A DNA stretch of 64,000 bases, from assembly GCA_016219515.1 (NCBI GenBank), contig JACRMU010000007.1, positions 40 to 64,039 of the forward strand. Direction: 5' to 3'. Positions 17,880 to 44,872 of this stretch are shown here, piece after piece. Origin of the DNA: Deltaproteobacteria bacterium (GTDB lineage Bacteria; Desulfobacterota; Deferrimicrobia; Deferrimicrobiales; Deferrimicrobiaceae). A program made the translations under genes and the position numbers. Every line of letters starts with the position of its first letter. Position 1 is the stretch's first letter. The notes under the pieces are model-generated. The model ran no database searches. It was not told where the DNA came from and saw nothing but the letters and a program-made list of their open reading frames with translations.

Positions 17880-18653
17880 GTGAACGGTTGCCGTAAATAC
17901 GAGGATCTTCTTGCCAGGTACATCCACGGCCAGGTTCTCCTCCAGGAGGTAGAGGACCTGGAAGGACACCTGGCCATGTGCGCGGCCTGCGAGAAGCTTT
18001 ACCGGGAAATCGCGGACATCGATCGAGTCCTGCGTGAGATGCCGGATAAGTCCGTCGAACCTCCGGCCCATCTCCGATCGAAAATCGTTGCGAACCTGCA
18101 GGAGGAGGAAAGAACCCCGGCCTGGCGGCCCTGGGGGAAATGGGCGGCTGCGATCGGGGCGGCCGCCGCGTGCCTCCTTGCGGGCGTCGTGCTTTACCGG
18201 GGAGCCGTGACGAAGGAATCCCGCGTGGCGCCCCTTCCTTCCGCGGCGCCTCCCGCCGCGCAGTCGCCGCAGGAAACCGCTCCCGGGGCTTCGGCGAAAG
18301 CCCCCGCTGCGCGGCCCCCGTTGTCTTCCGCCACGGCGCCGGCTCCTTCTCCCCACGCCGTGGAACTCCGGATCGTTCGCGAGGTAAAGATCTATTTCTA
18401 CCATCCGGCCGCGTCGAAGGTCGCCGTGACCGGCGATTTCAACGGCTGGAATCCCGAAGGCGTTCTCCTCACGGCATCCGGGGAGCCGGGGGTATGGAAG
18501 ACGACCTTGCGGCTCCATCCGGGGGCCTATTCCTACATCTTCATCGTGGACGGAAACCTCCTCGTTCCCGACCCCAATGCCCCCGACCAGATGCCGGACG
18601 GATACGGGGGGACGAATTCCATCCTGCTGGTCAAGGGAGGAAACTCCGTGTGA
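17880..18653 (+). CDS. Anti-sigma factor (zf-HC2) with a C-terminal CBM48/AMPK-beta-like glycogen-binding-type domain
   Basis: N-terminal HLAMCAACEKLYREI zinc-finger anti-sigma motif. One TM helix. C-terminal VKIYFYHPAASKVAVTGDFNGWNPEGVLLTASGEPGVWKTTLRLHPGAYSYIFIVDG is E-set/CBM48-like. Confidence 0.7.
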   Translation: MNGCRKYEDLLARYIHGQVLLQEVEDLEGHLAMCAACEKLYREIADIDRVLREMPDKSVEPPAHLRSKIVANLQEEERTPAWRPWGKWAAAIGAAAACLLAGVVLYRGAVTKESRVAPLPSAAPPAAQSPQETAPGASAKAPAARPPLSSATAPAPSPHAVELRIVREVKIYFYHPAASKVAVTGDFNGWNPEGVLLTASGEPGVWKTTLRLHPGAYSYIFIVDGNLLVPDPNAPDQMPDGYGGTNSILLVKGGNSV

Positions 18654-24002: not shown

Positions 24003-24045
24003 AGCGGTTCCGGGGACGAGCGGCACGGGCGAGGGAGGAAAGAGC

Positions 24046-28680: not shown

Positions 28681-28681
28681 G

Positions 28682-31600
28682 TTCCGGGACGGGACACGAC
28701 AACCACGTGGACGGGATCAAGACGGTCAAGTTCGGCACGACGCTGCGGACGACGGGAATCAACCAGCAGGCGACCGGCACATACGACAATGCCGCGTACC
28801 GCTGCTACAACACGTATTGCCACAGCAACGACACCGACAACGCCGCCTTCAACACGGCGGCGCAGCAGCCGGAGGACAACACGATCTCGTGGAACTCGGC
28901 TGCGGGCGGCACCTGCCGCACGTGCCACAAGTACACCGCGGCGTCCGGCAACCCGATGGTCAGCAACGCGCACGACAACCACGTGAACAACTACGCCCGG
29001 CTCGGGAAGTACATCGCATGTTATCAGTGTCACTCCGGAACGGTGGACGCCACGGACAACGTTCCGTCGACCCGGAGCTACCTCGACAACCATGTCAACG
29101 GCATCAAGAACGTCTATTTCGGCGCGGGCGTCGGCGCGTATGACAACACCCGGACGTGCCGGAACACCTATTGCCACCAGCAGGGGAACGCGCTGCTGTC
29201 TTCATTAACGCCGGGAGACAACCTGACTCCGGCGTGGACCGACAACTGGGCGTCGCTCTCCACGATCTGCAAGGGATGTCACGGCAGCCAGACGGGGACC
29301 GGTTACAGCAACCCTTCGTACTACGGGGAGCCGAATTACGACAATAATATCGGCAGTTCCGGGGCGCGGAACAGCCACTATGTGCATGTCAACTTGATGG
29401 CCGAGGGGGTGAACTGCCTGAAATGCCACCCGGATGTCGTCACGGCAGGGAACGCCATCGACAACGCGAGTGCGGCGATGCACATGAACGACAACGTGGA
29501 AGTGGCCCCGGGGCTGGGAGAGACGTTCGTCTGGGACCAGGCAACCAAGAGCTGCACGAATATCGTTTGCCACCAGGGAAACTCGACCCCGGTCTATTGG
29601 GGAGGGCCCGTCATCCCTTGTACCGCGTGCCACTCGTTTTCCCCCGTGGGGGAGGCGGCCCCGGCCCGTGTCTCCGGCCCGGCGCCCTCGCAGGGTCCCA
29701 GTCTGGCGTCGTCGCGCGGCGCCAGGTCGGCGACGACGCCGGCGATCGGCCCTGCGGCGTCCACGCTTTCCGTTCCTGCGCCGTCACAGGTTTCCGCTCC
29801 GATCCCGCCCCGGCTTCCGAAGTCCGGACGGCATATCAAGCCCATCGCCAGGATCCGGATCGCCGGCGGCTGGGACAACACGGGCCACGGGCGGACGATG
29901 GGGCACTACGTTTCCGGAAATCCTCCGGCCAACGCGTCGAGCCGTTTCTCCGCCTGCACCAACTACTGCCACTCCAACAACCCCATGTTGACTCCCCACA
30001 CGGACAACGCCGCCGGGCGCAACTTCTTCCGGCTCGCGACGGGCGGGGGGGGCGTCGCCCGGGCGGCGATCGACTGCACCACCGCCAACAACATCTGCAA
30101 CCAGTGCCACGCACTCGGTGGAGCGCTTGCGGCGCAGGCGACGCGGCAGGTCGGGGCGGCGCACTACGGGGCGAAGCACTCCTCGCCGGGAAACAACGGG
30201 GGTTACTTCTGCTGGGATTGTCACGATCCGCACGGGGGGGGGAGCGACTTCATGATCCGGGAGCGCGTGGCGGCGAGGACCGACAGGGGGGCGAACGGCG
30301 CAGGCCTCGGAATTCCGATCGTGACCCGGGCGACGTCGTTCACCGGCTCGGGGACCTACACGTGGAGTTCCTACGTAAAGGCGACCTTCGACGGCCTCTG
30401 CCAGGTCTGCCACTCCGCCGGGACGGGGATCCGGCATTTCCACAACTCGGCGGGCGGGTACGACAACGTTCATAATCCCGGAATCCGGTGCACGACGTGC
30501 CACACCCACAAACTGTCGGTGCCGGTCATCGGTTCCGTTGCCGACGATACGTTCAAGGTGCCCGGGATTTCAGGGAAGCTGGTGGCGGGAGACAAGGTCA
30601 CCGCGGTCCTGGTCGCGGTGCCGGGGGGGAAGGCCTCCTTCGACATGGGGAAGGTCAAGGGGATCCCGATGGCGGAAGTCCCCGCGAGCCCCGGCGGGCC
30701 GGGCATTCCGGCCGTCGACAACGGGACTTACCGGGGGACCTACACGATCCGGCCCGGGGATGACTACATCGAAGGGCGCATCGTCGGGCAGTTCGTGTCC
30801 TCCGACAACGTCGCAGCCGTGCCGCTGGCCTCGGCCTCCAAGTGGACGATCGACACGCAGCCGCGCGTGGCCTACGCCATCGACAAGACGGACCTTCCGG
30901 CCGACTCGGCGAGCAAGGCGAGAGTACGCCTTGTCGTCAAGGACGCCAACGGGAACGTCCTCAAGGGGAGGCGCTTCAAGCTGACGCTGGCGACGACCGA
31001 CGAATACACGGGCCTGGTGGGCGCCGGAAACTTCGGCAAGGACGTGGGGGCGACCGTCGAGGCCCTCTGGCAGGGGCAGACGGACGCCTGGGGGACGGTG
31101 GAATTCGACTACAAGGCGGGGTTCGCGGCGAAGACGGTGATCCTTGCCGCCAAGGACCTCGAATCGGGCGGAGTCGCGGTGGATTACATCACCTCCTACA
31201 AGGAGGCCTCCATCGACATTGCGCTGACCCCGCCCCGCAGCCTTGCCGCCGCGCGCCGCGGGCTGCAGTACATCATCAAGATCGAGGCGACCCGGACGGT
31301 GCTCACGGCCGACGGCCAGAGCCGGTCGGTGATCCGGGCGACGGTGACGGACCCCGGCGGGAAAGCGGTCGCGGGCGACAACGTCGTGTTCACGCTGTCG
31401 AGCCCGAACGGGTCGATACGGACGATCGAAGGGGTCACGAACGCTTCCGGGGTGGCGACGGCGGAGTACATCGCGGGGAAGAAGATCGGGATCGTCGTCG
31501 TCACCGCGACCGATATCCTGAGGAACGTCTCCGCAAGCGTCAGCATCGTCCTCCTGTCGGATGCCCCGGCGAAGATCTATCTCAAGGCGAGGCCCGAGAG

Positions 31601-32159
31601 CCTTCCGGCGGACGGGTTCAGCCGGTCGGACATCCAGGTGAAGGTGACCGACATCAACGACAACCCGAACGACAACACGAAGGTGGAGTTCCGGCTCGCG
31701 AAGGGGACGGGCAAGCTGGATTCCCAGGAGCGGGTGACGGACCGCTTCGGCGAAGCGCTGAACCGGTTTACCGCCGGGACCGTGCCGGGGATCGCGACCG
31801 TCCTTGCGACCGTGCGCTCGAAAGTCCCCACGTTGGCGGAGCTGGCCAAGGCGCAGAACGTCCTCTTCGTCCCGTATTCGGACCAGGGAGAGGAGATCCG
31901 GGTATCCCGATGGCTGAAGAAAAAGGGGGATACCGCCTTGAAGGGGGAGGCCGTCGTGGAGTACACGATCGGCCGGGGCGACACGGTCTACACGCTCAAT
32001 GCGCCGTACGATTGCCGGATCGACTTCCAGTACGTGGAATACTGGGACCGCGCCCAGACCGGCGACACGCTGGCCCAGATCACGCCGGTCGTCATCCCGG
32101 GATCCGCCGGCACGCTGCCGGCGTCGATCCCGGCGAGCCTTTCCCCAAGGAGAAGGTAA
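28682..32159 (+). CDS. Giant multiheme c-type cytochrome, C-terminal segment (about 9 CxxCH plus about 5 CX3-4CH, a P/S/A-rich linker, and tandem bacterial Ig-like domains)
   Basis: Begins ...GHDNHVDGIKTVKFG..., which repeats a motif found upstream (DNHVNGVKNVRF). CRTCH, CYQCH, CKGCH, CLKCH, CTACH, CNQCH, CWDCH, CQVCH and CTTCH. The C-terminal ~550 aa show Big_1/invasin-like repeats (...ADGFSRSDIQVKVTDINDNPNDNTKVEFRL...). Confidence 0.7.
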
Positions 32160-32362: not shown

Positions 32363-35300
32363 ATGACCGGACGGAAAGCTTGGCGTCTATGGATTTGTCT
32401 GCTCACGATCCTGGTCGCGTCCCGGGCGGAAGCCCTCCCCCCCCCACGGCCCGGCCTCGTGGACCCGCATACGCTGCGGTACCGGACCACGGGCCATAAG
32501 GTCCCCGTGCTCCCGAAAGCGGTCCGGGAGCATCGAATTTCTCCCCAAAAGGGGAAGTACCCGCTCGCCGCCGGTTTCTTCGCTGCGACAAGGTCCCTCG
32601 TGGCGGGGACAACGTCCGGCGTGAGGCCCCGCGCGATCCCGACGCCCGCCTCCGGCGCCCTCCGCCCGCTGATCGTGCTGGTCGACTTCGCGGACAAGCC
32701 GCACGATGACGCCGCGCACCCGGCCTCGGCGTACACTCCGCTCTTCTTCGGGAGCGGAGCGAGTGACCTGAGCGTCGCCAACTACTGGAATGAAGTGTCG
32801 TACGGGACGTTCACGCTCACCACGCTGTACAACCCCGACAGCACCTCGGTCGACATCGTCGGGTGGATCCGGCCGGCGGCATCCCCGGCCCTCTCCGGGG
32901 AATTCCGCTCGACGATCGTCTCCTACGCGCAGATCACGGACTCCGTCACGGGCGTCAACCTGACGAACCTGCGCACGCTGGTCACCGACATCGTCGCATA
33001 CCTCGACGGCGCGCCGAACAACCTGGATTTCGCACCGTACGCGGACCCCGCCACGGGGATCGTCCAGTCGCTGATCCTGGTGCACGCGGGGGCAGGGCAG
33101 GAGGACACGGGGAATACCGCGGACCTCTTTTCCCATAGCGCGTCCCTTGCATCTCCGGCCGGGACGAACGATACGGACGCCGGCGGCCATCAGGTCACGG
33201 TGGCCGACTACAGCGCCGTTCCGGAGCAGTTGAGCTTCGACCCCGCGACCGGCGCATCGACCCCCGTCCTCATCGGCGCGGGGGTGATCGCCCACGAAAT
33301 GGGCCACCTGTTCGGCCTTCCGGATCTCTACCCCACGTCCGGAACGTCCGGCCAGACCGGCGGCTACTCGGGAGTCGGCGTTTTCGACCTCATGGGCTAC
33401 GGGCTGTGGGGGAGCAACCTTCTCGCCCGGCCGGACAATCCCGCGCACCTTTCCGCGTGGTCCAAGTCGGACCTGGGGTGGGTCACCCCGACGGTCCTTT
33501 CCGCGACGTCTTCCAATACGCTCCTTCCGGCGGGGTCGACGGCGTCGGCCTACAAGGTGTACCCCAACGGGCCGGGGGACGAGTCGCAATATTTCCTTCT
33601 CGAGCTGAGGGGAAAAGACGGCCCCGGACTCTTCGACCGGTACCTGCCCGGGAACGGGGTGCTCGTCTGGCGCGTGGACTCCGAGCAGATGTCCGGTCAA
33701 CGGTCGGGCAACGCGGCGAACAACGATTCGAGCTTCCCCGCCCTTTCCGTGCAGGAAGCGGATCTCTCCGGCGCAAGCCCGTCGCCGCACCTGTTCCAGC
33801 CGTTCTCCATCGGCGCCGACGCGTTCGGCGCCGCGGGGGATTTCTTCTCCTCCTCGGGTCAGGTCTTCTCCCGGGTCCTGCCGGTGGACGGCCAGAACCT
33901 CACCAATTCCTCTCCGACGATCAACACCTCCTCCGTCAACCACCTCTTCGACGCCGGGTTCCTCGTCACCGTCCGGAATTTCGTCGTGACCATCGTCACC
34001 CGGATCGTGAACGCGGTCTTCGACCTGGCCGTCGAGCTTCCCTATTGGAAGGTCTACCGCTCCACGGATGCCCAGCCGACCCTGAACACCAACAAGACGC
34101 TTTCCTACGGCTTCGACGGTTCGAACCGGACCTGGGTGGGGACGACGGACCAGGGAATCTGGATTTTCGCCTTGACCACGTGGACCCAGATCAACTCGGC
34201 CCTTCTCCGGTCCTCCCGGATCCAGGCGATGGCCTATGAGCCCTCCACCGGCTCCATGTGGGTCGGAACCGATCAGACGGTGGCGAAGATCCGGCTCGAC
34301 CAGGTCCGGAGCGACGAAATCTTTCCCGCTTCCCCCTCCACCATCAACGTGAAGGGGATCCGGATCGCCCGCGACCTGACGAAATGGATCGGAGGGGGGC
34401 GACAGCTTGCGATCGTCACCGATGCCGGGAACAACCAGCCCAGCGGCCTTGCGTACACCGACCTGACTTTCAAGGTCCCCCTCCTGTCGGGCGAGCAGAT
34501 CACCTGCGTGGAGTTGGACAACGTCTTTTCGACGGACCAGACCAAGGACCTTCTGTACATCGGGACGTCCGTGGGGAACATCTACAGGAATTTCCGGGAG
34601 TCGGACAACGCCGTCTTGAGCCTCTACACCCTGTCCCTTCTTTCCTTCGAGAAGATGACCGCGCTGTCGCTGGCGGCCAATGCGCCGGGGGCCGTCAACG
34701 CGATGGCCATCGACAAGACGGGGCTGCTCTGGGTCGCGACCGACCGGGGAGTCTTCGCGTTCGACCGCGGGGACCCTTCGTCTTCCGACCCGGGCATCCG
34801 CTCCGACCGGTACAACCCCTTCGACCTTGCCGGGGACAACTCGGTGACCTCGCTCGTCTACTTCCCTCCCTCGTTCAGCGGGACGGGGGCCCACGGGTCG
34901 GCCGGGTTCATCGAGCCGACCGGCATCGCCTTCCAGGACACGGGACAGGCGCGAAACATCGTCTGGGTGTCCTACGGAGATACCGTCGGCTCCACGGAGT
35001 CGGCTTCCGGGGGCGCGGGGCGGATCGACCCCAACGTCCTCCTGAACACCCGGATCCCCAAGGACAACGCCGCCGGCATCAATGCCGTCGATTCGGCGCG
35101 GATCGGCCATGCGACGATGACGTTCACGAGGAACGCTTCCAGCCCGGAAAAGGGGCCGGCCGTCAACGATCTCATCGCCGCCGCGGGGGACGGCTCCTCC
35201 AACCTGTGGTTCGGGACGAAGAATTCCGGCGCCGTCCGTTTCGGTTCGGGGGCCTCGCTGACCCTCGACAAGACGGTCTACATCAACGATTCCGCCGCCG

Positions 35301-35938
35301 CCGGCGTGACGCTGGTCGACGAAAACGCCGTTACGACCTCCCTGGAGGTGACGGTCACCGGTTCGTCGGACGGGACCGGGTTTTCCATGACGCTTCCCAG
35401 GGGGACGGACAACGTCTACCGCGGCACGTTCGGCTTTTCGACGTCGGCCACCGACAACACGAGGTCGCCCAAGGTAATCCTGGTGAAGAACGGGGATACC
35501 GTGACCGTCAGCTACCGGGACATCAATCCGCCCTCCACCAAGTCCGCTTCCGCCACGTGGAGGAGCGTCTTCCCCTTCCACGACAGCCTGTTCATCGGAG
35601 GATGTTTCCTCTCGACGGCGGCATACGGCTCGGCGATGGCGCCCGAGGTGCAGACGCTCCGGCGTTTCCGGGATGCCTGGCTCCTCCGGGCCCCGGGAGG
35701 GGAAGCGCTCGTGTCCGCGTATTACCGGGTGAGCCCCCCTCTCGCGGCGTTCATCGCCGGGCGGCCGCTTCTGCGGCTTGCGGCAAGGGTGTTCCTCGCC
35801 CCCGCGGTCCTTCTGGCGAATGTCGCCGTGGGCGCGTGCCTTGCGGAGAAAATCGCCTCGTTGCTGATCGTCCTGCTCCTCCCGGGGTTCCTTTTTCTCT
35901 TTCCTCGGCGAACCATCGGACGGGCCGGCCGCCGTTGA
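32363..35938 (+). CDS. M6-family (immune inhibitor A-like) metalloprotease-domain protein with beta-propeller repeats and a conserved C-terminal sorting-like tail
   Basis: Signal peptide. VIAHEMGHLFGLPDLY (HExxHxxGxxDxY, diagnostic of M6/InhA). Later Reg_prop-like repeats (WVGTTDQGIWIF, LLYIGTSVGNIY, LWVATDRGVFAF). C-terminal CFLSTAAYGS...LRRFRD...YYRVSPP... followed by a hydrophobic stretch ending ...PRRTIGRAGRR. Confidence 0.8.
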   Translation: MTGRKAWRLWICLLTILVASRAEALPPPRPGLVDPHTLRYRTTGHKVPVLPKAVREHRISPQKGKYPLAAGFFAATRSLVAGTTSGVRPRAIPTPASGALRPLIVLVDFADKPHDDAAHPASAYTPLFFGSGASDLSVANYWNEVSYGTFTLTTLYNPDSTSVDIVGWIRPAASPALSGEFRSTIVSYAQITDSVTGVNLTNLRTLVTDIVAYLDGAPNNLDFAPYADPATGIVQSLILVHAGAGQEDTGNTADLFSHSASLASPAGTNDTDAGGHQVTVADYSAVPEQLSFDPATGASTPVLIGAGVIAHEMGHLFGLPDLYPTSGTSGQTGGYSGVGVFDLMGYGLWGSNLLARPDNPAHLSAWSKSDLGWVTPTVLSATSSNTLLPAGSTASAYKVYPNGPGDESQYFLLELRGKDGPGLFDRYLPGNGVLVWRVDSEQMSGQRSGNAANNDSSFPALSVQEADLSGASPSPHLFQPFSIGADAFGAAGDFFSSSGQVFSRVLPVDGQNLTNSSPTINTSSVNHLFDAGFLVTVRNFVVTIVTRIVNAVFDLAVELPYWKVYRSTDAQPTLNTNKTLSYGFDGSNRTWVGTTDQGIWIFALTTWTQINSALLRSSRIQAMAYEPSTGSMWVGTDQTVAKIRLDQVRSDEIFPASPSTINVKGIRIARDLTKWIGGGRQLAIVTDAGNNQPSGLAYTDLTFKVPLLSGEQITCVELDNVFSTDQTKDLLYIGTSVGNIYRNFRESDNAVLSLYTLSLLSFEKMTALSLAANAPGAVNAMAIDKTGLLWVATDRGVFAFDRGDPSSSDPGIRSDRYNPFDLAGDNSVTSLVYFPPSFSGTGAHGSAGFIEPTGIAFQDTGQARNIVWVSYGDTVGSTESASGGAGRIDPNVLLNTRIPKDNAAGINAVDSARIGHATMTFTRNASSPEKGPAVNDLIAAAGDGSSNLWFGTKNSGAVRFGSGASLTLDKTVYINDSAAAGVTLVDENAVTTSLEVTVTGSSDGTGFSMTLPRGTDNVYRGTFGFSTSATDNTRSPKVILVKNGDTVTVSYRDINPPSTKSASATWRSVFPFHDSLFIGGCFLSTAAYGSAMAPEVQTLRRFRDAWLLRAPGGEALVSAYYRVSPPLAAFIAGRPLLRLAARVFLAPAVLLANVAVGACLAEKIASLLIVLLLPGFLFLFPRRTIGRAGRR

Positions 35939-37719
35939 TGCGCGGATCCGGATATATCTTATGGATGGTTGCGGCCGCGGTCCTTATGCTGCTGGAAGGC
36001 TCCGCGCGGGGGGCGGGATTGATCAGCGGGAGCTACGAGTTGACCGTCGATGAAACCGTCGACAAGACGGCGAGCGGAACGACCCGGGCCGTCCGGTCGA
36101 AAAACACGCTGGACCTGCGGTACAAGGGATTTCTCGCCCCCGTCATACAGAACGAGCTGACCTTCAAGGTGGAGCAGTTCCGCGATTCGACGGGACCCGA
36201 CACGGTGAAGATCTTCCCGGGGATCTCCCTGGGCTACAAGGGATCGTACTGGAACGCCGGCGCGAAAAGGACGATCGAGGATTCGAACGAGGTCGGGAAG
36301 ACCGCTTCCATCACCGACAGCTACTTCATGGAGGTGTTCCTCGTGCCGCCGAGGAGACTTCCGGACTTCAAGGGGAAGTACACGCTGGAGACGAACTTCC
36401 AGGAGGGATCCACCGATACGCGGAAGACCTCCTGGAACCTGTCGTCCAACTACCGTCCATACGATTGGCTCGACGTGAAGGGGGATTACTCCCGGAACCT
36501 GAACGACGACCGGCTGAAGGCCGACTCGGACACGGAAGAGGAAAGAATCAGCGGAACGGGAGGCATTCGACACTTCATCTCCAACAAGATCAAACTTGAT
36601 ATACAGTACAAGGTGGAAAAGAATACCGGGGCGACTCTCCTGGATGCGGGAGGAGCGAAAAACCAGAAAGAGGAAGAGACGCAGACGGTAAAGAACCTGA
36701 TTGCCTTCCGCCCCTTCAGGGACACGAACGTCGACGCATCCTTCGACGGCGAGCTGAAGGAGAACCACGTGAGCGGGGAGCATAACCTGACCGGCAACTT
36801 CAAGGTTTCCGCCGGGCAGAAGATCGGACAACCGTACGACCTCAAGGCGGATTTCGGGCGGAACATCACGGAAGCGCGTCATACCGCGGACGACAACAAG
36901 AAAACGGAAGACACGGTAACGGTGGATTGGAAGGCGAAATATTCGAGCTTGCTCGATTTTTCCGTGAAATACCTCAAGAAGGACATCGAAGAGGACCATC
37001 CGTTCGACCTGACGAAGAACACGTCGTCCGGGAACGAGGAGTGGACCGCTTCCTGGGTGTCCCAGATCCTGCCCACGTTGAACGCGTCGTTTTCCTACGA
37101 CAAGAACGATACCTTTTCCCGGGGGGCCAAGTCCGCCGTCGACACCCGGTACAACCTGAAAGCCAACGTCGCCCTGAGGGACATCAACCTGACGCTCGAT
37201 CCTTCCTACGAAATCGCATTCAAAAACGACCTGGTGACGATGGTGAAGAGCGAAACGCGGGACTTCCGCGTCGCGCTGACCTACAAGCCGATCGAAACGA
37301 ACAACATCAACTCCCTCCTGTCCCATACGTACGCCCGCAAGGAGGATTCCCTGGCGAACAACATCAACCGGACGGACAGCACGTCGGGAAACGTCACGTG
37401 GAAGGACCCCCTTCCCGGATGGATGATGGGATTCGACATCACCCGGCAGGCGACCGACACGAGCAACGACGATCTCCCGCCGGACATCACCACCAATTTC
37501 GGCGTGAAGGCCTCCTACAAGTACCGGCGGCTGGCGTTCGACACGTCCTACAAGTACGACAAGAAGAAGATCTCCGACGACAGCGAAAGCTTCGACGTGA
37601 AGGTGGGCTGGACGGCGCCCTCCTGGGACGCCAGTCTCACCTACGCCTTCAAGAGGACGTTCTCCGTGGCTCCGAACGAGGGACAAAGCATCGGTTTCGC
37701 TTTCCGATACGTTTTTTAA
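35938..37719 (+). CDS. Putative outer-membrane beta-barrel protein
   Basis: Signal peptide and alternating amphipathic beta-strand pattern throughout. Terminal ...FAFRYVF with C-terminal Phe. ATG overlaps the upstream stop. Confidence 0.55.
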   Translation: MRGSGYILWMVAAAVLMLLEGSARGAGLISGSYELTVDETVDKTASGTTRAVRSKNTLDLRYKGFLAPVIQNELTFKVEQFRDSTGPDTVKIFPGISLGYKGSYWNAGAKRTIEDSNEVGKTASITDSYFMEVFLVPPRRLPDFKGKYTLETNFQEGSTDTRKTSWNLSSNYRPYDWLDVKGDYSRNLNDDRLKADSDTEEERISGTGGIRHFISNKIKLDIQYKVEKNTGATLLDAGGAKNQKEEETQTVKNLIAFRPFRDTNVDASFDGELKENHVSGEHNLTGNFKVSAGQKIGQPYDLKADFGRNITEARHTADDNKKTEDTVTVDWKAKYSSLLDFSVKYLKKDIEEDHPFDLTKNTSSGNEEWTASWVSQILPTLNASFSYDKNDTFSRGAKSAVDTRYNLKANVALRDINLTLDPSYEIAFKNDLVTMVKSETRDFRVALTYKPIETNNINSLLSHTYARKEDSLANNINRTDSTSGNVTWKDPLPGWMMGFDITRQATDTSNDDLPPDITTNFGVKASYKYRRLAFDTSYKYDKKKISDDSESFDVKVGWTAPSWDASLTYAFKRTFSVAPNEGQSIGFAFRYVF

Positions 37720-37745
37720 TACCGGGCACGATCAAGGAGAGAAGA

Positions 37746-38813
37746 ATGAAAAACTGGAAGAGGATGGCGTGGCTGATCGTGGTGACGGCTCTCGTGGCGG
37801 GCTGCTCGCGGCCGGTGATCCGTGAGCACGCTCAACCCTCCAAGGCCAAGGATACCTACCTTCGCATCAAGCGGGTCGCGATCTTCCCACTGGAAAACTA
37901 TTCGGAGACCCGGGACGCGGAGAAGATGGTGGACGCCCTCCTGGTGCCTGCGCTCCGGCTGGAGAAGGTCTTCAACGAAGTGGAGGATACGCGGTTCACC
38001 CGCGACGTGATGAAGAAGCTGAAGATCACCGGGACGGACATCCTGGAAAAGGAGGTCGTCCGGAAGCTGGGCGACGAAATGAACGTCCAGGCGATCGTTT
38101 ACGGGAAGATCCTCGGCTACGGAAAGGGGAAGGAGAAGGATGCGTCCTCCCAGGTGACGATGGATATGGCCATGGTCGAGCCCTCCACGGGGAGCGTTCT
38201 CTGGGTGGGGAACGTGTCGGCGATCGGCGGGCTGACCGCCGGGAAGATCTTCGGCGTCACGGAAGGGAAGACCGACGTGGAAGTGGCCAGGGATGCGGTT
38301 CGCGCCCTGGCCTCCCGGCTTGCCGACGAAATCCGCCGGGCGCGGGAACAGGAACGGAAGGGGATCGTCGCGGAGCTGAAGAAGGAAGAGGAGATCGAAA
38401 AGGCGAGGCTGGACAAGCTGAAGGGGGAGACCGGGAAGATCCAGGAGCAGCTGGACAAGGCGAAGGCGGAGGCCGGCGCGATCAGGGACGCCGCCTCGAA
38501 AGAGGCCCAGGCGGTCAAATCGGACCTGGAAATGCAGAAGGCGGCGCTGGACGCGGAGAAGGCGAGGACGACGTCCGCGCAGCAGGATATCGAAAAAGAG
38601 AAGATGAAGGTGGAGATGGAAAAGAGAAAGATCGAGGAGGATGCGAAGAGGATCGGGGAGGAAAAGAAACGGCTGGAAGAGCTGAAGAAGAAATCCGAGG
38701 GTGCGATCAAGGAGGAGCCGGTCAAGGAGGGCGCTTCCCCGGCCGCGCCGGCCCCTGCGCCGGCCGCGCCCGCTCCGCCTCCCGCCGCGCCCGCGGGAAC
38801 ACCGGCGCAATAG
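37746..38813 (+). CDS. Lipoprotein with an N-terminal CsgG/LpoB-like globular domain, a K/E-rich coiled coil and an A/P-rich C-terminus
   Basis: Lipobox LVAGCS. ...RVAIFPLENYSETRDAEKMVDALLVPAL... Long EEIEKARLDKLKGETGKIQEQLDKAKAEAG... coiled coil. C-terminal PAAPAPAPAAPAPPPAAPAG. Confidence 0.55.
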   Translation: MKNWKRMAWLIVVTALVAGCSRPVIREHAQPSKAKDTYLRIKRVAIFPLENYSETRDAEKMVDALLVPALRLEKVFNEVEDTRFTRDVMKKLKITGTDILEKEVVRKLGDEMNVQAIVYGKILGYGKGKEKDASSQVTMDMAMVEPSTGSVLWVGNVSAIGGLTAGKIFGVTEGKTDVEVARDAVRALASRLADEIRRAREQERKGIVAELKKEEEIEKARLDKLKGETGKIQEQLDKAKAEAGAIRDAASKEAQAVKSDLEMQKAALDAEKARTTSAQQDIEKEKMKVEMEKRKIEEDAKRIGEEKKRLEELKKKSEGAIKEEPVKEGASPAAPAPAPAAPAPPPAAPAGTPAQ

Positions 38814-38921
38814 GGTAGCCCTCGTTCGGGAAATGCGGGCCAAGGGACGAAAAAGGGAGAATCCGGCGCTCCGCCGGCCTGTCCGGCGGGAGCGTCGATC
38901 GAACATCGAGAGGAGAAGAAT

Positions 38922-40004
38922 TTGAGGAACGCATGGTTCAGGAGGATCGGATCGGTATTGGCGGCCGCTGCGGCATGCGGCCTGTGGATGGGATGTTCCA
39001 CCGCGGACGGGAAAAACGAGATCGTGGGGACCGCCAACGGCGAGGAGATCCGGGTGGCCGAGCTCCGCGAGTTTCTGGGAGTCCGCAGCGGTTCGACGGC
39101 AGCGTCGGATATCCCGGCGGAAAAGAAAAAGGAGGCGCTGGACCGGTTGATCGGCGGCCGTCTCCTTGCGCAGGAAGCGCGGGCGAAGGGCCTGGACAAC
39201 ACCGAGGAATTCCGCGCGCAGATCCGGCAGAACGAGCAGGACCTGTGGATCACCGCGCTCTTCCGGAAGGAGATCGACGCCAAGTCCTCGGACATCGACA
39301 AGGAGGTCAAGGCGGAAGCGAAAAAAATGATGGAAGCGGACAAGAAGCTCACCGAGAAGGACGCGGAATCGCGCGCCGGGAAGCTGACGTACGATATGAA
39401 GGTACGGAAGATCCAGGAGGAATTGATCGCCTCCGCGAAAAAGGAGGTCCCGCCTTCCATCGACAAGGCGCTGCTGGAACGGATCGGGAAGAAGGAGAAC
39501 GTCGCCGACGACGCGGTCATCGCGACGGCCGGCGCGGAGAAGGTCAGCTACGGCGAAGCGAAGCGGATGCTCCAGGCCATCGGCGGGGGCTCGCACGGCT
39601 CCGAGGACCTGTCGCGGAACCCGACGGCGATCGAAAGGATCCTGGACCGGGAGCTCACGAAACGGGCCCTTCTCGGCCTGGCGAGGAAACAGGGGATCGA
39701 AGGGTCGAAATGGCTGGCGGAAATACGGAAGGAGATGGAGAGGATCCTCCTCATCAACATCCTGGCGGAGAAGGAGATTCTCAAGGGCATCGTCGTGACC
39801 GACAAGGACCTCGATGCGACCTACAAGGAACATGCGGACATGTTCGTCCAGAACGGGAAAAAGATTCCGTTCGCGCAGGTCAAGGAGCAGATCCGGGGAT
39901 TCGTCGCGACCAACATGAAGAGAAAAGCCATCGAGTCGTATGTCGAGGCGCTGAAAAAGAAGGCCAAGATTACGGTGAACGAAAGCGTTCTCGCCAAGGT
40001 GTAA
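38922..40004 (+). CDS. SurA N-terminal-domain-like periplasmic chaperone lipoprotein
   Basis: Lipobox LWMGCS. IVGTANGEEIRVAELREFL resembles the SurA_N/PpiD N-terminus. No clear PPIase domain seen. Confidence 0.5.
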   Translation: MRNAWFRRIGSVLAAAAACGLWMGCSTADGKNEIVGTANGEEIRVAELREFLGVRSGSTAASDIPAEKKKEALDRLIGGRLLAQEARAKGLDNTEEFRAQIRQNEQDLWITALFRKEIDAKSSDIDKEVKAEAKKMMEADKKLTEKDAESRAGKLTYDMKVRKIQEELIASAKKEVPPSIDKALLERIGKKENVADDAVIATAGAEKVSYGEAKRMLQAIGGGSHGSEDLSRNPTAIERILDRELTKRALLGLARKQGIEGSKWLAEIRKEMERILLINILAEKEILKGIVVTDKDLDATYKEHADMFVQNGKKIPFAQVKEQIRGFVATNMKRKAIESYVEALKKKAKITVNESVLAKV

Positions 40005-40016
40005 CCACGGGAGGAG

Positions 40017-40967
40017 ATGTCCATGAGGAAGCGGGCGCTGCAGGCGGCGGTGTTGGTGCTGGCCCTTTGGGCCGCGGGGCGGGCGGCCGCGGAGACAACC
40101 TTCGAGCTTCTCTATTCCGTCGGGGGTTTCGGCATCGGGAGGCAGAGCTTCGACCGGCCCGTCGACGTCGTCGAGGACCGGGAAGAAAACGTATACGTCG
40201 TGGACCAGGGGAACAACCGGATCCAGGTGCTCGACCGGAGGGGGACGTTCCTCAGGGAATGGGGAGGACGCGGGTTCACCCCGGGCCTTTTCGACAAGCC
40301 GTCGGCGATCGCGATCGAACCGGTCGCGGGAAGCCTTTTCGTGGTGGACCGGCTCAACCATCGCGTCCAGAAGTTCGATCCGAACGGAAGGTTCCTGATG
40401 TCGTTCGGACGGCTCGGCTCCGGGGACGGGGATTTCAACCGGCCGATGGACATCGCGCTGGACAGGAAAGGGAACATCTTCGTCGCGGACACGGGCAACA
40501 ACCGGATCGAGAAATTCGACCCGAGCGGAAAATTCATCCTGGAATGGGGAAAGTACGCGCGCCGTCGCCGGGGGGCCGAACTGACGAACCCGGTCTCCAT
40601 CGCCTATTCCGATGAAGGGTTCGGCTATATTTACGTGCTGACGTCGCCCGAATGCGTCGTGCAGAAATACGACATCGACGGGGTGCTCGTGAAAACCTGG
40701 CCGATGCGCCCGAAGGGGGAAAGCGCGCTCTGCGGTCCTTCCCGCATACGGATTGAACCGCGGAAGTATACGGTGTATATTGCGGATACGGAAAACAACC
40801 GCTTGATTCTGTTCGACAAAGAGGGCGAACCCCTGGGGGAATTGCGGGGGGGGAAGGTCCCGCTGAAGAAGCCCGGCGGCCTGTTCGTGAACATTTCGTT
40901 CGGGGAGAATGTCGTCGTGGCGGACACCGGCAACCATCTCATTCAAAAGTTCAGGAGGGAAAGGTAG
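40017..40967 (+). CDS. NHL-repeat beta-propeller protein
   Basis: Signal peptide. Repeated ...VYVVDQGNNRIQVLD..., ...LFVVDRLNHRVQKFD..., ...IFVADTGNNRIEKFD..., ...VVVADTGNHLIQKF... Confidence 0.8.
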   Translation: MSMRKRALQAAVLVLALWAAGRAAAETTFELLYSVGGFGIGRQSFDRPVDVVEDREENVYVVDQGNNRIQVLDRRGTFLREWGGRGFTPGLFDKPSAIAIEPVAGSLFVVDRLNHRVQKFDPNGRFLMSFGRLGSGDGDFNRPMDIALDRKGNIFVADTGNNRIEKFDPSGKFILEWGKYARRRRGAELTNPVSIAYSDEGFGYIYVLTSPECVVQKYDIDGVLVKTWPMRPKGESALCGPSRIRIEPRKYTVYIADTENNRLILFDKEGEPLGELRGGKVPLKKPGGLFVNISFGENVVVADTGNHLIQKFRRER

Positions 40968-40969: not shown

Positions 40970-41557
40970 ATGCGCGTTCCTGCGACGACTCCGCTTCTTT
41001 CCGTGATGTTTTTCTGCTGCATGGCGTTCGTGGCGGGAACGGCGCTGGCCGAGGAAAAGGCGATGACTCCCCTTGCGGGGGGGATCCCCATGATCGAGGG
41101 GATCAAGATGCTGGAGGTGGGGACCGCCGCGCCCGATTTCAGCGTCAAGGACTCCGATGGGAAGCCGTTCCGCCTCTCGGAGGAGAAGGGGAAGAAGGCG
41201 TTCCTCCTCGTGTTCTGGTCGATCTTCTGCGAACCGTGCCGGGCCGAAATGCCGGTCATCCAGAAGATGCACGAGAAGTACCGGGAAAGCGGTCTGAACG
41301 TCGTCACGATCGCCCTCGACGGCGAGCCGCTGGTCGGCAGCATCGCCGGGTTCATCCGCCAGGAGGGGTACACCTTCCGGGTGTTGATCGACGAGCTGGA
41401 TTCCCAGGAGATGTTCAAAGTGGCCGATCCCTACGGCGTGGCGGGGACCCCGACCCTCTTTCTCCTGGACCGCGCGGGGAAGGTGGCCCTCGCCAGGGCG
41501 GGCCGGCTGACGGATGAGGAGCTGGAAAAGGCCATCCAGGCGGTTCTGAAAAAGTGA
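40970..41557 (+). CDS. TlpA-family thiol:disulfide oxidoreductase
   Basis: Signal peptide. FWSIFCEPCRAEMP. Confidence 0.8.
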   Translation: MRVPATTPLLSVMFFCCMAFVAGTALAEEKAMTPLAGGIPMIEGIKMLEVGTAAPDFSVKDSDGKPFRLSEEKGKKAFLLVFWSIFCEPCRAEMPVIQKMHEKYRESGLNVVTIALDGEPLVGSIAGFIRQEGYTFRVLIDELDSQEMFKVADPYGVAGTPTLFLLDRAGKVALARAGRLTDEELEKAIQAVLKK

Positions 41558-41561: not shown

Positions 41562-43109
41562 GTGATGTGGGCGGCCCTCCGCGGTGCGACCCTCGCCGCG
41601 CTGTTCTGCCTTTGGGCCGGGAGCGCTTTAGCCGTCGCCGTGGGGGAGCCGGCGGCGCCCATCGAGGGGGAGGACCTGAACGGGGAGCGGGTCGTCCTGG
41701 AGTCCTTCCTCGGAAAGAAGGCCGTCCTCCTGAAGTTCGGGTCGATCTACTGTTCGACCTGCGTGTCTTCCCTGGAGGATATCGCCCGCATCCAGCGGAA
41801 GTTCAACCCCTCGGAACTGCAGGTCATCGGCGTGAACCTGGACGTCTACGGCATGGCGCGCGTGCGGAAGTTCTACCGGGGCTACGCGACCCTCATCGAC
41901 TATCCGATGATCATCGACGAGAAGCTGGCGGCCTCCCGTCCATACGATATCCGGTCGATCCCCGCGCACGTCGTCATCGACAAGGGCGGGTTCGTCCGGT
42001 ACCTGTCGACGGGCGCTTCGGAGCAGGACCTGAAGAACCTGGAAGAGGTCGTCACCAAGGTGGTCCGCGGCGAGAGCGGCGTCGAGAAGCTGGCCAAGGA
42101 ACTCCCGCTGCAGGTTTTCCTGCCGCTGAATTTCACCAAGACCTACCAGGAGTCGATCTATGTCGTGGGAAAGACGAAGCCCGGGAGCAAGGTGTCTCTC
42201 GTCCTCAACGGCGGATCGCGGCAGAACTTGAAGACCATGCGGGATTATTTCTACATCCGCACTCCGCTTTCCCTGGGCTCGAACTACATCGAGCTTCAGG
42301 TCGTCGACGAGCAGGGCAGGAGGGTCAACCAGGGAGTGGTCCTGTTCCGGGCTCCGAAGGTCGGGGTGGGGATCGAGTCCCCCTTCCCGGAGTATCATTT
42401 CCACATGGAAAAAAACGAGGGGCCGTGCAGGAAGTGCCACGACCTCAATCCCCCCGCGGAGAAGGCGCAGGGATTCTCCGCGGCAACCCGGTTCTGCCTC
42501 GGATGCCACAAGGAGCTGACCGGCCAGCGGATGGCGCACGGCCCGATTCCCATCGGGGGGTGCGCGCCCTGTCACCGGTTCACGAGCAAGCCGAACCGGT
42601 ACCAGGTCGTCGCCCGGGGGCAGGAGCTCTGCTTCAAGTGCCACGAGGAGAAGCGGAAGGACCTCGTAAAGACCTATCTCCACGGCCCGATGTCGGCCGG
42701 GCTCTGCACGATCTGCCACAATCCGCACGGCTCCTCCGAGACGTACCAGCTTCGGAGATACGTGGGGGACCTCTGCGTCATGTGCCACGAGGGGATGAAG
42801 GCCGTGCAGCGGAAGCGGGTGGTCCACAAGCCGGTGGCCGACGGCGCATGCGCGAAGTGCCACGAGTCGCACTCCTCGGACCGGAACGACAACTTTCTCA
42901 AGATCCCGGGGGACGGCCTGTGCCTGTCCTGCCACACCGATTTCGGAAAGAGGGGGCATACCCACCCGAACGGCGTTCCCCCGAAGATGGACCGGAAGAT
43001 GAAATTGAGCAAGGAAGGCAATCTGGTCTGCCAGTCGTGCCATGAGGCCCATGCGTCCGACGAACCGAAGCTACTGGTGAAAGGAGGGTGCGGCGGATGT
43101 CATTCCTGA
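41562..43109 (+). CDS. Fusion protein: N-terminal TlpA-like thioredoxin domain plus C-terminal decaheme cytochrome c (paired-CxxCH / c3-c7 type)
   Basis: Signal peptide. Trx-like FGSIYCSTCVSSLEDI. The C-terminal half has CRKCH, CLGCH, CAPCH, CFKCH, CTICH, CVMCH, CAKCH, CLSCH, CQSCH and CGGCH, with conserved distal His spacing (...HGP...). Confidence 0.8.
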   Translation: MMWAALRGATLAALFCLWAGSALAVAVGEPAAPIEGEDLNGERVVLESFLGKKAVLLKFGSIYCSTCVSSLEDIARIQRKFNPSELQVIGVNLDVYGMARVRKFYRGYATLIDYPMIIDEKLAASRPYDIRSIPAHVVIDKGGFVRYLSTGASEQDLKNLEEVVTKVVRGESGVEKLAKELPLQVFLPLNFTKTYQESIYVVGKTKPGSKVSLVLNGGSRQNLKTMRDYFYIRTPLSLGSNYIELQVVDEQGRRVNQGVVLFRAPKVGVGIESPFPEYHFHMEKNEGPCRKCHDLNPPAEKAQGFSAATRFCLGCHKELTGQRMAHGPIPIGGCAPCHRFTSKPNRYQVVARGQELCFKCHEEKRKDLVKTYLHGPMSAGLCTICHNPHGSSETYQLRRYVGDLCVMCHEGMKAVQRKRVVHKPVADGACAKCHESHSSDRNDNFLKIPGDGLCLSCHTDFGKRGHTHPNGVPPKMDRKMKLSKEGNLVCQSCHEAHASDEPKLLVKGGCGGCHS

Positions 43110-43141: not shown

Positions 43142-44872
43142 ATGGCGAAATTCCGCTTGTCCCTGGAGTTCAAGCTGATCATGGCCTCGATGGTGCTCGC
43201 GCTGATCACGATCGGCCTGGGCGGGGTGGCCGTCTACAAGGTCAGCGAAGACGCCATCAAGGTCGATGCGCAGAGGAACGCCCGCCTCCTCGCGTCCCAG
43301 CTGGGGGCGCTCCGCGGAATCGGCGCCGATGCGTCCCGGGGACTCAACGACCTGCTGGTATCGGCGAAAGTCGAAACGTTCGGCGCCTCCTGGGTGATGG
43401 ACCGCAACGGCTTTCTCATCGCCCACATGGCCCCCAAGTTCCGGGGCATGGTGGAGGCGCAGACCTACATCGGCGACACCGTCGTCGAGCTCCACGCGGC
43501 GGAACAGCCGATCCAGCAGCTGGGCGAGAAGAACATCATGCACCGGGTGAAGCTGCAGGAGCTGATCGAGAAGTTCGACGGCGGGTTCGGCACGTACCAT
43601 TTCCTGGGAGAGAACAAGATCCTCGCGTTCCGCGTGATGAAGGACCGCGGGTGGCTCGTCGCGGTCGACCAGCCGATCAGCACGGCGTTCTCGGAGCTCA
43701 CGCGCCTCAAGAAGGTCATTCTCACGACCTGCATCGTCATCGCGGTGCTGGTGATGGGGTTCACCTCGTTCGCCGTCCGGATGATCATCCGGCCGTACTA
43801 CCGCGAGCAGGAGAAGACCAACCTGAAGCTCGAGATGATGAACCAGGAGCTCGAGATGTCCCGCCGGAAGCTGGAGAAGGCGGGGGACAGCCTGACGCGG
43901 CTGTACGACCTGAGCATCGCCATGCAGTATTCCGGCTTCCTCGAATCGCATCTTCCGCTGGTGCTGGGGGTCGCCCAGGAACGGTTCGAGGTCGACCGGA
44001 TCCTGCTCATGATGCCGGACGCGGAGGGGAAGTTCCTCCGCTGCGCGGCCTCCGTGGGGAACGTATTCGAATCCGAGGACAAGATCTTCGTGCCGATCTC
44101 GCTGGAAGGGGGGGGGTTCGCGCGCGCCTACCGGACGAAGCGCGCGGTGTTCTGGGACGGCACCGAGACGGTCCCGGAACACCTGAAATTCCGCGCGCCG
44201 TACGACAAGGTCCGGTCGCTGCGGTCGAAGGCGTTCGCTATCTTCCCCCTGATCGCCAAGGAGAAGGTGATCGGCGTGGTCGGCGTCGACAACAAGATGA
44301 GCCACCGCCCCCTGACGAAGGAGACTGCCGACGCGATCGAGAGCTTCGCGTACAAGATGGCGTCCCTCATCGACAACACCCTCCACCTGCAGTCGATCCA
44401 GAAAGCTGCGCAGGAGATGGAGAACCGGGACCGGCTGACCGGGCTGTACAACTTGCACTACGTGAAGACGCTGGCGGAGGAGCACATCAACGCCGCGGTG
44501 AGCAAGGGCGTCCCATTCACCCTGTCGATGGTGTACCTGCCCAATTTCAAGGAATACAACGAGACGAACGGGTACAAGCGGGGCGATTTCGTCCTTCAGA
44601 AGACCGCCGAGTTCCTGAAGGCGCAGGAGGTGATGGGGGTCGTCCCCGCCCGGTGCTTCGGCGCCGCGTTCCTCGTCCTCTTCCCGGGGAAGAACGAGGA
44701 ACAGGGGAAGTACCTGATCGACATGTTCCTTAAGGAATTCAACCAGTTCTCCTTCTACGGAGAGAAGCGGCTGTCGGAAGGGAAGATGACCGCGAAAATC
44801 ACCACCGCGGAGTACACGCGCGAATCGGGGAAGACCTTCGACGAGTTTTTCGCGGACCTCGAAACCGCGTGA
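43142..44872 (+). CDS. Membrane sensor protein with a periplasmic/Cache-like region, a GAF domain and a degenerate GGDEF domain (GAAF in place of GGEEF)
   Basis: Two TM segments flank an extracytoplasmic region. GAF-like ...ILLMMPDAEGKFLRCAASVGN...VIGVVGVDNK... GGDEF-like ...RDRLTGLYNLHYV...GDFVLQKTAEFLK...RCFGAAFLVLFPG... Confidence 0.65.
   Translation: MAKFRLSLEFKLIMASMVLALITIGLGGVAVYKVSEDAIKVDAQRNARLLASQLGALRGIGADASRGLNDLLVSAKVETFGASWVMDRNGFLIAHMAPKFRGMVEAQTYIGDTVVELHAAEQPIQQLGEKNIMHRVKLQELIEKFDGGFGTYHFLGENKILAFRVMKDRGWLVAVDQPISTAFSELTRLKKVILTTCIVIAVLVMGFTSFAVRMIIRPYYREQEKTNLKLEMMNQELEMSRRKLEKAGDSLTRLYDLSIAMQYSGFLESHLPLVLGVAQERFEVDRILLMMPDAEGKFLRCAASVGNVFESEDKIFVPISLEGGGFARAYRTKRAVFWDGTETVPEHLKFRAPYDKVRSLRSKAFAIFPLIAKEKVIGVVGVDNKMSHRPLTKETADAIESFAYKMASLIDNTLHLQSIQKAAQEMENRDRLTGLYNLHYVKTLAEEHINAAVSKGVPFTLSMVYLPNFKEYNETNGYKRGDFVLQKTAEFLKAQEVMGVVPARCFGAAFLVLFPGKNEEQGKYLIDMFLKEFNQFSFYGEKRLSEGKMTAKITTAEYTRESGKTFDEFFADLETA

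Follow-up and report, generated by a model that had tools for sequence, protein, structure and literature searches.

The closest described counterparts of the system reported here are porin-cytochrome conduits and thioredoxin-fold proteins of the TlpA type. In the MtrCAB complex the N-terminus of MtrA protrudes ~20 Å into the periplasm, its C-terminal heme points outward and the enclosing MtrB barrel has 26 strands (PMC7198977); PioAB functions without an extracellular cytochrome, and the N-terminal part of PioA is removed after secretion (PMC6831781). The reduction of apocytochrome by ResA is the only experimentally established link between a TlpA-like protein and a c-type cytochrome; ResA needs a glutamate (Glu-80) to keep the pKa of its cysteines high and to mature cytochromes, and this residue has been proposed to serve in apocytochrome binding (PMC2665060). 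Here we analyse a gene that joins the two kinds of domain in one polypeptide. It lies in a stretch of 64,000 nucleotides (hereafter the window) from the 71.7-kb contig JACRMU010000007.1 of a Deltaproteobacteria bacterium (assembly GCA_016219515.1), and its product, exported by Sec to the periplasm, is built of three conserved domains: a thioredoxin head, a β-sandwich spacer and a ten-heme tail. Together with the conserved gene cassette that surrounds it, the fusion looks like a variant of the porin-cytochrome module in which the wire bears a thioredoxin head and the barrel is unusually wide. Our full-text literature searches recovered no description of either the thioredoxin-decaheme fusion or the cassette.

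Architecture and conservation of the fusion

The gene is an uninterrupted open reading frame (ORF) of 515 codons with a GTG start (Table 1). The deposited start is an ATG one codon downstream, and the resulting product of 514 aa is an exact match to GenBank MBI5341867.1, annotated as a "redoxin domain-containing protein". Behind a cleavable-looking signal peptide, Pfam recognizes a Redoxin/AhpC-TSA domain at aa 27-163 (50-54 bits against a cut-off of 26; individually, PF08534 with 50.1 bits against 26.6 and PF00578 with 54.4 bits against 26) followed by five copies of Paired_CXXCH_1 (134.5 bits). A preliminary description, made from the letters of the DNA, had proposed a single-polypeptide fusion of a TlpA-like thioredoxin to a decaheme cytochrome of the c3/c7 type. 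The fusion itself is borne out by the single ORF, by the Pfam matches to both domains and by the recurrence of the architecture in more than 110 protein clusters. The count of ten hemes likewise stood; the c3/c7 label did not, as the corresponding Pfam matches are weaker (46-50 bits) and MtrA/DmsE-like paired-CXXCH describes the tail better. That description had also overlooked a third domain, the β-sandwich of ~80 residues between head and tail.

An AlphaFold2 (AF2) model calculated from 45 homologues has high confidence in the thioredoxin fold and low confidence in the heme part, no hemes being modelled. By Foldseek the head aligns with ResA at TM-scores of 0.87-0.89 and an rmsd of ~2 Å, and the block FGSIYCSxC and P134 are invariant across the 45 homologues. 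The head thus has the fold, the CxxC and the cis-proline of TlpA/ResA/CcmG-type thioredoxin-fold oxidoreductases, and may be active as one. It further resembles these proteins in its export signal and its genomic association with c-type cytochromes. It differs from them in its YCS[ST]C site without a proline, in a serine in place of Glu-80 and in being fused to its presumed substrate or partner. The residue at +3 after the CxxC is Ser in 107, Thr in 3 and Pro in 1 of 111 homologues and never Glu; since the Glu-80 equivalent is absent, the head is not a canonical ResA, and it scores 52.2 bits with the model for ResA proper (NCBIfam NF002854), under the cut-off of 170. Instead, the ResA signature CEPCxxE sits on the adjacent stand-alone gene. 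The nearest PDB sequence matches of the head are Etrx1/Etrx2 (E 1e-9) and ResA, with SOQ1 a weak one (E 0.006). A peroxiredoxin (AhpC/TSA sensu stricto) was considered and rejected: the PxxxT/SxxC motif is absent, there is no Pro at -7 (LLKFGSIYC) and the best peroxiredoxin model reaches E 0.0045 against 6e-14 for ResA. An iron-sulfur (Fe-S) cluster on the proline-less CxxC was dismissed by reasoning, Sec export of an unfolded c-type cytochrome being incompatible with cytoplasmic cluster insertion.

The head and the β-sandwich together align to the C-terminal domains of Mycobacterium tuberculosis DipZ (2hyx, 5cyy; Foldseek E 1e-10), where a TlpA-like domain is likewise followed by a β-sandwich; this is the top Foldseek match spanning both domains, over ~310 aligned columns. 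Unlike the fusion, DipZ has an N-terminal CcdA-like membrane domain and no hemes, and its two domains are oriented differently (rmsd ~12 Å). Beyond the signal peptide the fusion has no membrane domain and hence does not belong to the DipZ/DsbD type.

The tail contains exactly ten CxxCH motifs (aa 289-514), the last ending two residues short of the C-terminus, in a polypeptide that is poor in secondary structure like that of MtrA and its counterparts in PioAB and MtoAB. MtrA is also its best PDB sequence match (6r2q_A of the MtrCAB structure 6R2Q; E 2.8e-11), and with the DmsE/MtrA family model TIGR03508 it scores 111.6 bits over profile positions 70-223, short of the cut-off of 192.2. On present evidence the tail would be MtrA-like in its working, although it cannot be filed in the MtrA/DmsE family. 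It departs from the known conduit cytochromes in its shorter heme domain (~235 aa) and in having nine conserved distal histidines. As in PioA, the decaheme part carries a long N-terminal extension, which in our case consists of the folded thioredoxin and β-sandwich. The nine conserved non-motif histidines (H281, 326, 374, 389, 422, 437, 466, 468 and 497) face ten hemes: the heme-3 unit (CxPCH-DF-S) lacks the histidine that follows hemes 5, 7 and 9, and an invariant Tyr347 lies close to it. One heme of the tail may therefore have unusual axial ligation. It is unlikely that the thioredoxin supplies the missing tenth distal ligand, as the same histidine is absent from relatives that lack the thioredoxin and retain the β-sandwich.

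A search over ~5.8 billion protein clusters recovered more than 110 full-length homologues of the fusion (36-96% identity), each of which has the Redoxin + Paired_CXXCH architecture. Metagenomes and metagenome-assembled genomes (MAGs) are their only sources, and the sequences are already public, though under generic names alone ("redoxin domain-containing" or "cytochrome c3 family"). Among the 112 homologues of at least 450 aa, drawn from independent assemblies, a CxxC is found within the N-terminal 160 residues in 111 and the site reads CSTC or CSSC in 109. In 185,579 species-representative genomes we found 41 related loci, ~39 of which have the full fusion; the fusion-bearing genomes are all MAGs, labelled Deltaproteobacteria, Deferrisomatales, Thermodesulfobacteriota, Rokubacteria and similar. 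When 1.84 billion representatives at 50% identity were searched exhaustively with a profile, only ~4-6 full-length clusters emerged. The fusion is hence conserved yet rare.

In an alignment of 45 fusion homologues (37-85% identity), C64, C67, the cis-Pro P134 and all 30 Cys/His residues of the ten heme motifs are invariant, which lends no support to the doubt, raised with the initial proposal, that CSTC might not act as a redox pair. The region between thioredoxin and hemes measures 96-103 aa and the heme region mostly 237-243 aa. These invariant sites and near-constant lengths exclude a mis-join. An assembly or annotation artefact joining two neighbouring genes, or a frameshift between them, has in any case a negligible probability: the same continuous ORF recurs in clusters from JGI, NCBI, ENA and Logan assemblies and in the ~39 genomes, more than 100 homologues contain no internal stop, and the GC content at third codon positions (GC3) is an even 0.88 across the whole ORF, as in the adjoining genes.

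A conserved cassette and split relatives

The window genes between 35.9 and 44.9 kb are all co-directional (+), and comparison of the related loci reveals a core cassette comprising a large outer-membrane barrel, a lipoprotein, an NHL propeller, a ResA-type TlpA, the fusion and usually a protein with GAF and degenerate GGDEF domains. The NHL, CEPC TlpA and fusion genes are always adjacent, with the TlpA directly upstream of the fusion, in the 41 genome loci and on metagenome contigs; the NHL gene directly precedes the TlpA gene in 34 related loci. All 38 of the TlpA neighbours that carry the motif, the window copy included, have CEPC with a Glu at +3. In distant genomes (L042, L044 and L046) the cassette, of five or six genes, has housekeeping genes on its flanks and no further cytochrome. 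NCBIfam holds no curated system for the cassette and no family for the barrel or the lipoprotein.

The barrel is modelled by AF2 with a mean confidence (pLDDT) of 88 as 30 DSSP strands with short loops and no plug. Its lowest Foldseek E-value against the PDB is to MtrB (6r2q_B; E 6e-10, TMq 0.39) and its highest TMq, 0.46, to 8agd_A, which contains a 30-strand barrel; Pfam Porin_4 is weakly matched. The co-encoded large plug-less barrel with MtrB as its lowest-E match recalls MtrAB, PioAB and MtoAB, as does, for PioAB, a conserved core without an extracellular cytochrome (PMC6831781). The differences lie in the ~30 strands against 26 (TM 0.39) and in the three to four genes that separate the barrel and cytochrome genes. 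With a profile of the barrel, a match lying 3-5 kb upstream of the fusion was obtained in 28 of the 29 retrieved loci whose upstream DNA is long enough (weakly in L038). The exception, L013, has a gap of Ns beside an apparent insertion where the barrel is expected; its minus-strand ORFs at ~4600-8900, in the position of the barrel and lipoprotein and beside runs of N, appear by eye to be phage-structural, and the interruption may be an insertion or a mis-assembly.

The lipoprotein, whose sole NCBIfam match is LpoB, far under the cut-off, is kept between the barrel and the NHL gene in most loci; its position is otherwise filled by a gene of 245-249 aa without a Pfam match (L044, L046) or by a 529-aa TPR protein (L042). 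The SurA-N-like gene is restricted to closer relatives (10 related loci), L042 again having the TPR protein there. A comparison of orthologues detected no conserved cysteine other than that of the lipobox in the exported parts of the cassette proteins other than the fusion, and the two cysteines of the NHL protein are kept in only about half of its orthologues. The NHL protein, the barrel and the lipoproteins were therefore rejected as thioredoxin substrates, as no conserved cysteines were found in them. In the last gene the GGDEF signature is replaced by FGAAF, and it is degenerate in all 28 orthologues sequenced there, mostly as [FY]G[AS][AT]F; a function as diguanylate cyclase is improbable. 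In most loci this gene comes directly after the fusion gene, and in L046 it is missing. Identification of its product as a 'GPMC system regulator' was rejected at 23 bits against a cut-off of 1200.

By gene content, the cassette is also reminiscent of the Uet cluster of 'Ca. Tenderia electrophaga' and Gallionella and of other NHL clusters, which combine a barrel, a peptidyl-prolyl isomerase (PPIase)-like chaperone, one or more NHL propellers and a multiheme cytochrome (PMC10734462; 10.1101/2022.05.06.490989). Unlike our cassette, Uet has no thioredoxin fusion, and it possesses undeca-, tri- and tetraheme cytochromes and a cupredoxin.

Profile searches further recovered many proteins of 350-400 aa consisting of the β-sandwich and the decaheme without the thioredoxin. 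Two loci show them in context. L048 has the order multiheme cytochrome, TlpA (WCNIC), c554-like multiheme cytochrome, sandwich-decaheme and GAF-GGDEF protein. L050 has a multiheme cytochrome, TlpA (SCVAC), TlpA (SIYCSTC, 163 aa), TlpA (FCESC), sandwich-decaheme and an N-terminal fragment resembling the GGDEF membrane protein of the window. Hence, a SIYCSTC thioredoxin and a decaheme that are separate neighbours in relatives are fused here, which provides a Rosetta-stone argument for a functional link between them. Other multiheme cytochrome genes of the window, and those of L048 and L050, likewise have TlpA genes at their sides. The link between TlpA proteins and hemes that had been proposed at the outset accordingly holds in two respects, the strict conservation of the covalent fusion and the systematic association of TlpA and multiheme genes in the window and its relatives; the disulfide chemistry suggested with it is taken up below.

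The number of TlpA genes needs correction. Rather than at least seven stand-alone paralogues, the window has seven TlpA-like domains in all: five complete stand-alone genes, a sixth cut by the window start, and the fusion. The closest window paralogue of the fused head (12362-13027, minus strand; SIYCASC) is paired with the closest paralogue of the CEPC neighbour (11775-12350, minus strand; FCGPC). This pairing mirrors that of head and CEPC neighbour, which implies that a TlpA pair was duplicated.

One orphan homologue, P0208 (L049, 2807-4369, 520 aa), retains the thioredoxin fold, the β-sandwich and the ten hemes, with FDSAHSARG replacing FGSIYCSTC. It sits between P-type ATPase and RND efflux genes without a cassette and may be decaying.

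Functional readings of the thioredoxin head

We tentatively favour, with a probability of about 0.4, a reading in which the tail is an MtrA/PioA-like wire and the head works with the ResA-type neighbour in a thiol pathway serving cytochrome maturation and assembly. The architecture of the fusion and its invariance speak for it. The conduit part of this reading is preferred because MtrA is the best solved match of the tail, MtrB has the lowest E-value for the barrel and barrel and fusion co-occur so consistently, and because the distant cassettes amid housekeeping genes offer no other cytochrome. The maturation part is preferred because apocytochrome reduction is the only established TlpA-cytochrome relationship, because the cassette contains no other cysteine substrate, because TlpA genes flank multiheme cytochromes and because the neighbour is invariably of the ResA-type CEPCxxE form.

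By analogy with MtrA and PioA, the ten-heme tail would be threaded into the ~30-strand barrel with its extreme C-terminal heme at the outer mouth, and the thioredoxin and β-sandwich would remain periplasmic like the N-terminus of MtrA, so that barrel and fusion would constitute a two-component conduit comparable to PioAB or MtoAB. The head would leave the Sec translocon first and could keep or restore the reduced CxxCH thiols of its own tail until heme attachment and barrel loading; perhaps it would also serve co-encoded multiheme cytochromes. This role of the head is the least certain step of the reading. Electrons would pass from a general reductant to the CEPCxxE TlpA, from there to the CS[ST]C head and finally to the 20 heme-binding cysteines, a relay that would parallel DsbD, CcmG, CcmH and apocytochrome in System I. 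Later the head might remain in the periplasm as a stopper or docking module, or it might be removed by cleavage, as happens in PioA.

Several observations weigh against this reading. A transient assembly factor need not remain covalently attached through a spacer whose length stays fixed over the range of 36-96% identity, and the relatives without a thioredoxin show that a decaheme manages without an attached head, though TlpA genes are nearby. The head has no equivalent of Glu-80, with Ser or Thr there in 110 of 111 homologues, and no CcdA/DsbD-type supplier of reductant was seen in the cassette. The insertion of the tail into the barrel is suggested by gene neighbourhood and remote similarity only: the TM-score of the barrel to MtrB is 0.39, with 30 strands against 26, and the tail falls below the DmsE/MtrA family cut-off.

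The covalent fusion, strictly conserved with both cysteines invariant and a spacer of fixed length, is also what would be expected if the CS[ST]C disulfide exchanged electrons directly with the first heme or hemes of the wire, a reading that we consider somewhat unlikely. Either the heme chain or extracellular donors would power disulfide reduction, or thiol oxidation, for instance of the CEPC TlpA, would discharge to extracellular acceptors. The site of the head, unlike ResA in having neither a Pro in its dipeptide nor a Glu at +3, suggests redox properties different from those of the reductive neighbour; the cassette has two different thioredoxins and no CcdA/DsbD; and the head would be placed, judging from the topology of MtrA, at the periplasmic heme-1 end of the wire. 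In addition, no conserved distal His is present for one heme close to the N-terminal end of the heme domain. However, that histidine is also missing from the relatives without a thioredoxin and its loss is thus not thioredoxin-specific; a region of ~100 residues with a folded domain of its own separates the CxxC domain from heme 1; one-electron hemes are mismatched to a two-electron disulfide; P0208 keeps fold and hemes without both cysteines; and the known apocytochrome reduction by TlpA/ResA accounts for the same association without new chemistry. We are aware of no case in which a c-type heme and the disulfide of a thioredoxin fold exchange electrons directly, with no flavin, Fe-S cluster or metal involved. 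Fusions of Sco to cytochrome c, combining a thioredoxin-fold domain of the copper-binding CxxxC Sco type with a monoheme domain, are reported to exchange electrons between their domains, though their biology is different. It is unlikely that electrons pass between the head and the periplasmic end of an outer-membrane-spanning decaheme, wiring periplasmic thiol/disulfide chemistry directly to extracellular donors or acceptors without flavin, Fe-S or CcdA/DsbD; if they did, heme-to-disulfide redox coupling of a new kind would operate within a porin-cytochrome complex.

The persistence of the fold in P0208 without its cysteines, and the precedent of DipZ for thioredoxin and β-sandwich as an established structural pair, are in turn compatible with a head that acts as a stopper or docking platform, positioning the wire in an oversized barrel and binding the NHL propeller, the lipoprotein or periplasmic cytochromes. 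Its CxxC could then act as a redox switch, gating the conduit or reporting the redox state of the envelope to the GAF/degenerate-GGDEF protein, which follows the fusion in most loci and the thioredoxin-less relative in L048. NHL proteins recur in electron-transfer clusters, where they are thought to be scaffolds (10.1101/2022.05.06.490989). We regard this as distinctly unlikely: the invariant cysteines, cis-Pro and FGSIYCSxC of the cassette-borne copies are what a catalytic site typically shows, no cysteine occurs in the periplasmic domain of the window GGDEF protein, and P0208, which has no cassette, is perhaps a decaying copy. More improbable still is a role in envelope repair or on another thiol substrate, in which the head, the NHL propeller and the CEPC TlpA would reduce oxidised Cys or Met, or handle a sulfur or selenium compound at the conduit. 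This would be a split analogue of SOQ1/NHLRC2, extracytoplasmic or lumenal proteins in which a thioredoxin-like module is likewise paired with an NHL propeller, or of the Etrx proteins that feed MsrAB. SOQ1 has been reported to be a methionine sulfoxide reductase of the lumen, in our cassette the NHL gene is always the neighbour of the TlpA gene, and the best PDB sequence matches of the head include Etrx1/Etrx2 and, weakly, SOQ1. Yet this likeness to Etrx and SOQ1 is generic to the thioredoxin fold and no better than that to ResA; NHL and TlpA are separate genes here, SOQ1/NHLRC2 have no hemes and their active-site motif differs from that of the head; and the cassettes of L042, L044 and L046 contain no Msr, rhodanese or other partner enzyme.

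Should the architecture of the favoured conduit reading be true, the cassette would be a compact, self-contained porin-cytochrome module in which accessory proteins join a single cytochrome and a single, unusually wide barrel, and would add a case from uncultured bacteria labelled as Deltaproteobacteria-like, Deferrisomatales, Thermodesulfobacteriota and Rokubacteria to the few known conduits across the outer membrane. The covalent head would offer a handle on how the 20 heme-binding cysteines of a decaheme are kept reduced during maturation and threading into a barrel, and on whether c-type heme chains drive or drain disulfide chemistry directly.

Other genes of the window and of related loci

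Table 1. Features of the window, with positions counted from its first nucleotide
Feature	Position (strand)	Remarks
Fusion protein	41562..43109 (+), deposited ATG 41565	signal peptide + TlpA-like thioredoxin + β-sandwich + decaheme
Thioredoxin-fold domain	41640..42071 (+), aa 27-170	AF2 pLDDT mostly 85-96
CSTC active site	41751-41762, aa 64-67	in the thioredoxin head
cis-Pro codon (P134)	41961-41963	cis conformation predicted from position
β-sandwich spacer	42111..42347 (+), aa ~184-262	six strands in the AF2 model, cysteine-free
Decaheme domain	42402..43106 (+), aa 281-515	Paired_CXXCH_1 x5, ten CxxCH
Outer-membrane β-barrel, presumed sheath of the decaheme tail	35938..37719 (+)	593 aa, no cysteines
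Lipoprotein	37746..38813 (+)	lipobox Cys20 invariant; weakly LpoB-like N-domain, coiled coil, Ala/Pro-rich tail
SurA-N-like lipoprotein (chaperone/PPIase-like)	38922..40004 (+)	Pfam SurA_N_2/3 just under cut-off
Secreted NHL-repeat β-propeller	40017..40967 (+)	Pfam NHL 91.5 bits
Stand-alone ResA-type TlpA, FCEPCxxE	40970..41557 (+)	Pfam Redoxin 79 bits; NCBIfam ResA 106.7 bits, cut-off 170
Membrane protein with periplasmic domain, GAF and degenerate GGDEF	43142..44872 (+)	Pfam GAF and GGDEF
Stand-alone TlpA genes	1426-2049, 2046-2552, 11775-12350 (-), 12362-13027 (-), 40970-41557	complete
Truncated TlpA	..262	C-terminal fragment, cut by window start
Gene string	1-3763 (+)	TlpA fragment (..262), heptaheme cytochrome 336-1472, TlpA WCDIC 1426-2049, TlpA ACSAC 2046-2552, octaheme cytochrome ~2570-3763
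Polytopic membrane protein (636 aa), polysaccharide deacetylase/DUF3473 protein, GT1/GT2/GT4 glycosyltransferases	within 3764-11732 (+)	membrane protein without family match
Membrane polyferredoxin, NapH-NapG-fusion-like	13191-14735 (+)	514 aa, divergent from TlpA pair 11775-13027 (-)
Protein with twin-arginine-like N-terminus, Npun_F2552-like	14832-15797	after polyferredoxin
PqqD-like protein	15834-16184 (+)	
SPASM-domain protein, GeoRSP-system-like	16297-17208 (+)	under cut-off
Anti-sigma-factor-like protein	17880-18653 (+)	
Three giant multiheme cytochromes	19252-32159 (+)	1274 aa/21 CxxCH; 1721 aa/29 CxxCH; ~1050 aa/~9 CxxCH + CxxxxCH
M6-family metalloprotease (immune inhibitor A-like, HEMGH)	32363-35938 (+)	1191 aa, propeller-like repeats, CFI-box-CTERM sorting domain

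The giant multiheme cytochromes and the M6-like protease upstream of the barrel are lineage-specific neighbours and not part of the core. We rejected the 21- and 29-heme giants and the protease as core components because they are missing from the cassette in distant genomes, and the ~9-heme giant is classed with them; the protease is found upstream of the barrel in closer relatives only (L004-L012). The giant of ~1050 aa ends in C-terminal Big_1/invasin immunoglobulin-like domains. Opposite four real genes, the minus strand of 37716-40946 contains an ORF of 1076 codons; with a GC content of 0.83 at first codon positions and a GC3 of 0.61, it is a high-GC shadow ORF and not a gene.

At the start of the window, both cytochromes of the gene string are c554-like, the octaheme being nearest to the Thermincola surface reductase OcwA (6i5b, E 1.5e-16). 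A homologous string lies directly upstream of the sandwich-decaheme without a thioredoxin in L048, and for this reason the first 3763 nucleotides and the fusion region may be functionally linked. Counting the WCDIC/ACSAC pair of this string (1426-2552), the window has three TlpA pairs, and in every one of them a more classical site is found together with a C[AS][AST]C site. The envelope polysaccharide or glycosylation cluster of 3764-11732 separates the two TlpA/cytochrome regions; in this cluster, the ORF at 10626-11732 (+) is similar to the three confirmed glycosyltransferases. The PqqD-like, SPASM-domain and anti-sigma-factor-like genes (15834-18653) may form a peptide-modification or regulatory module beside the cytochrome genes.

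Lastly, a locus in a 3.8-Mb genome (L051, CP070813.1) encodes six multiheme cytochromes, three NHL/propeller proteins, one of them with a T9SS Por_Secre_tail, a Redoxin-TPR fusion without a CxxC and a 706-aa protein without a Pfam match. This cluster indicates that the combination of redoxin, NHL and multiheme proteins recurs in a very different lineage.

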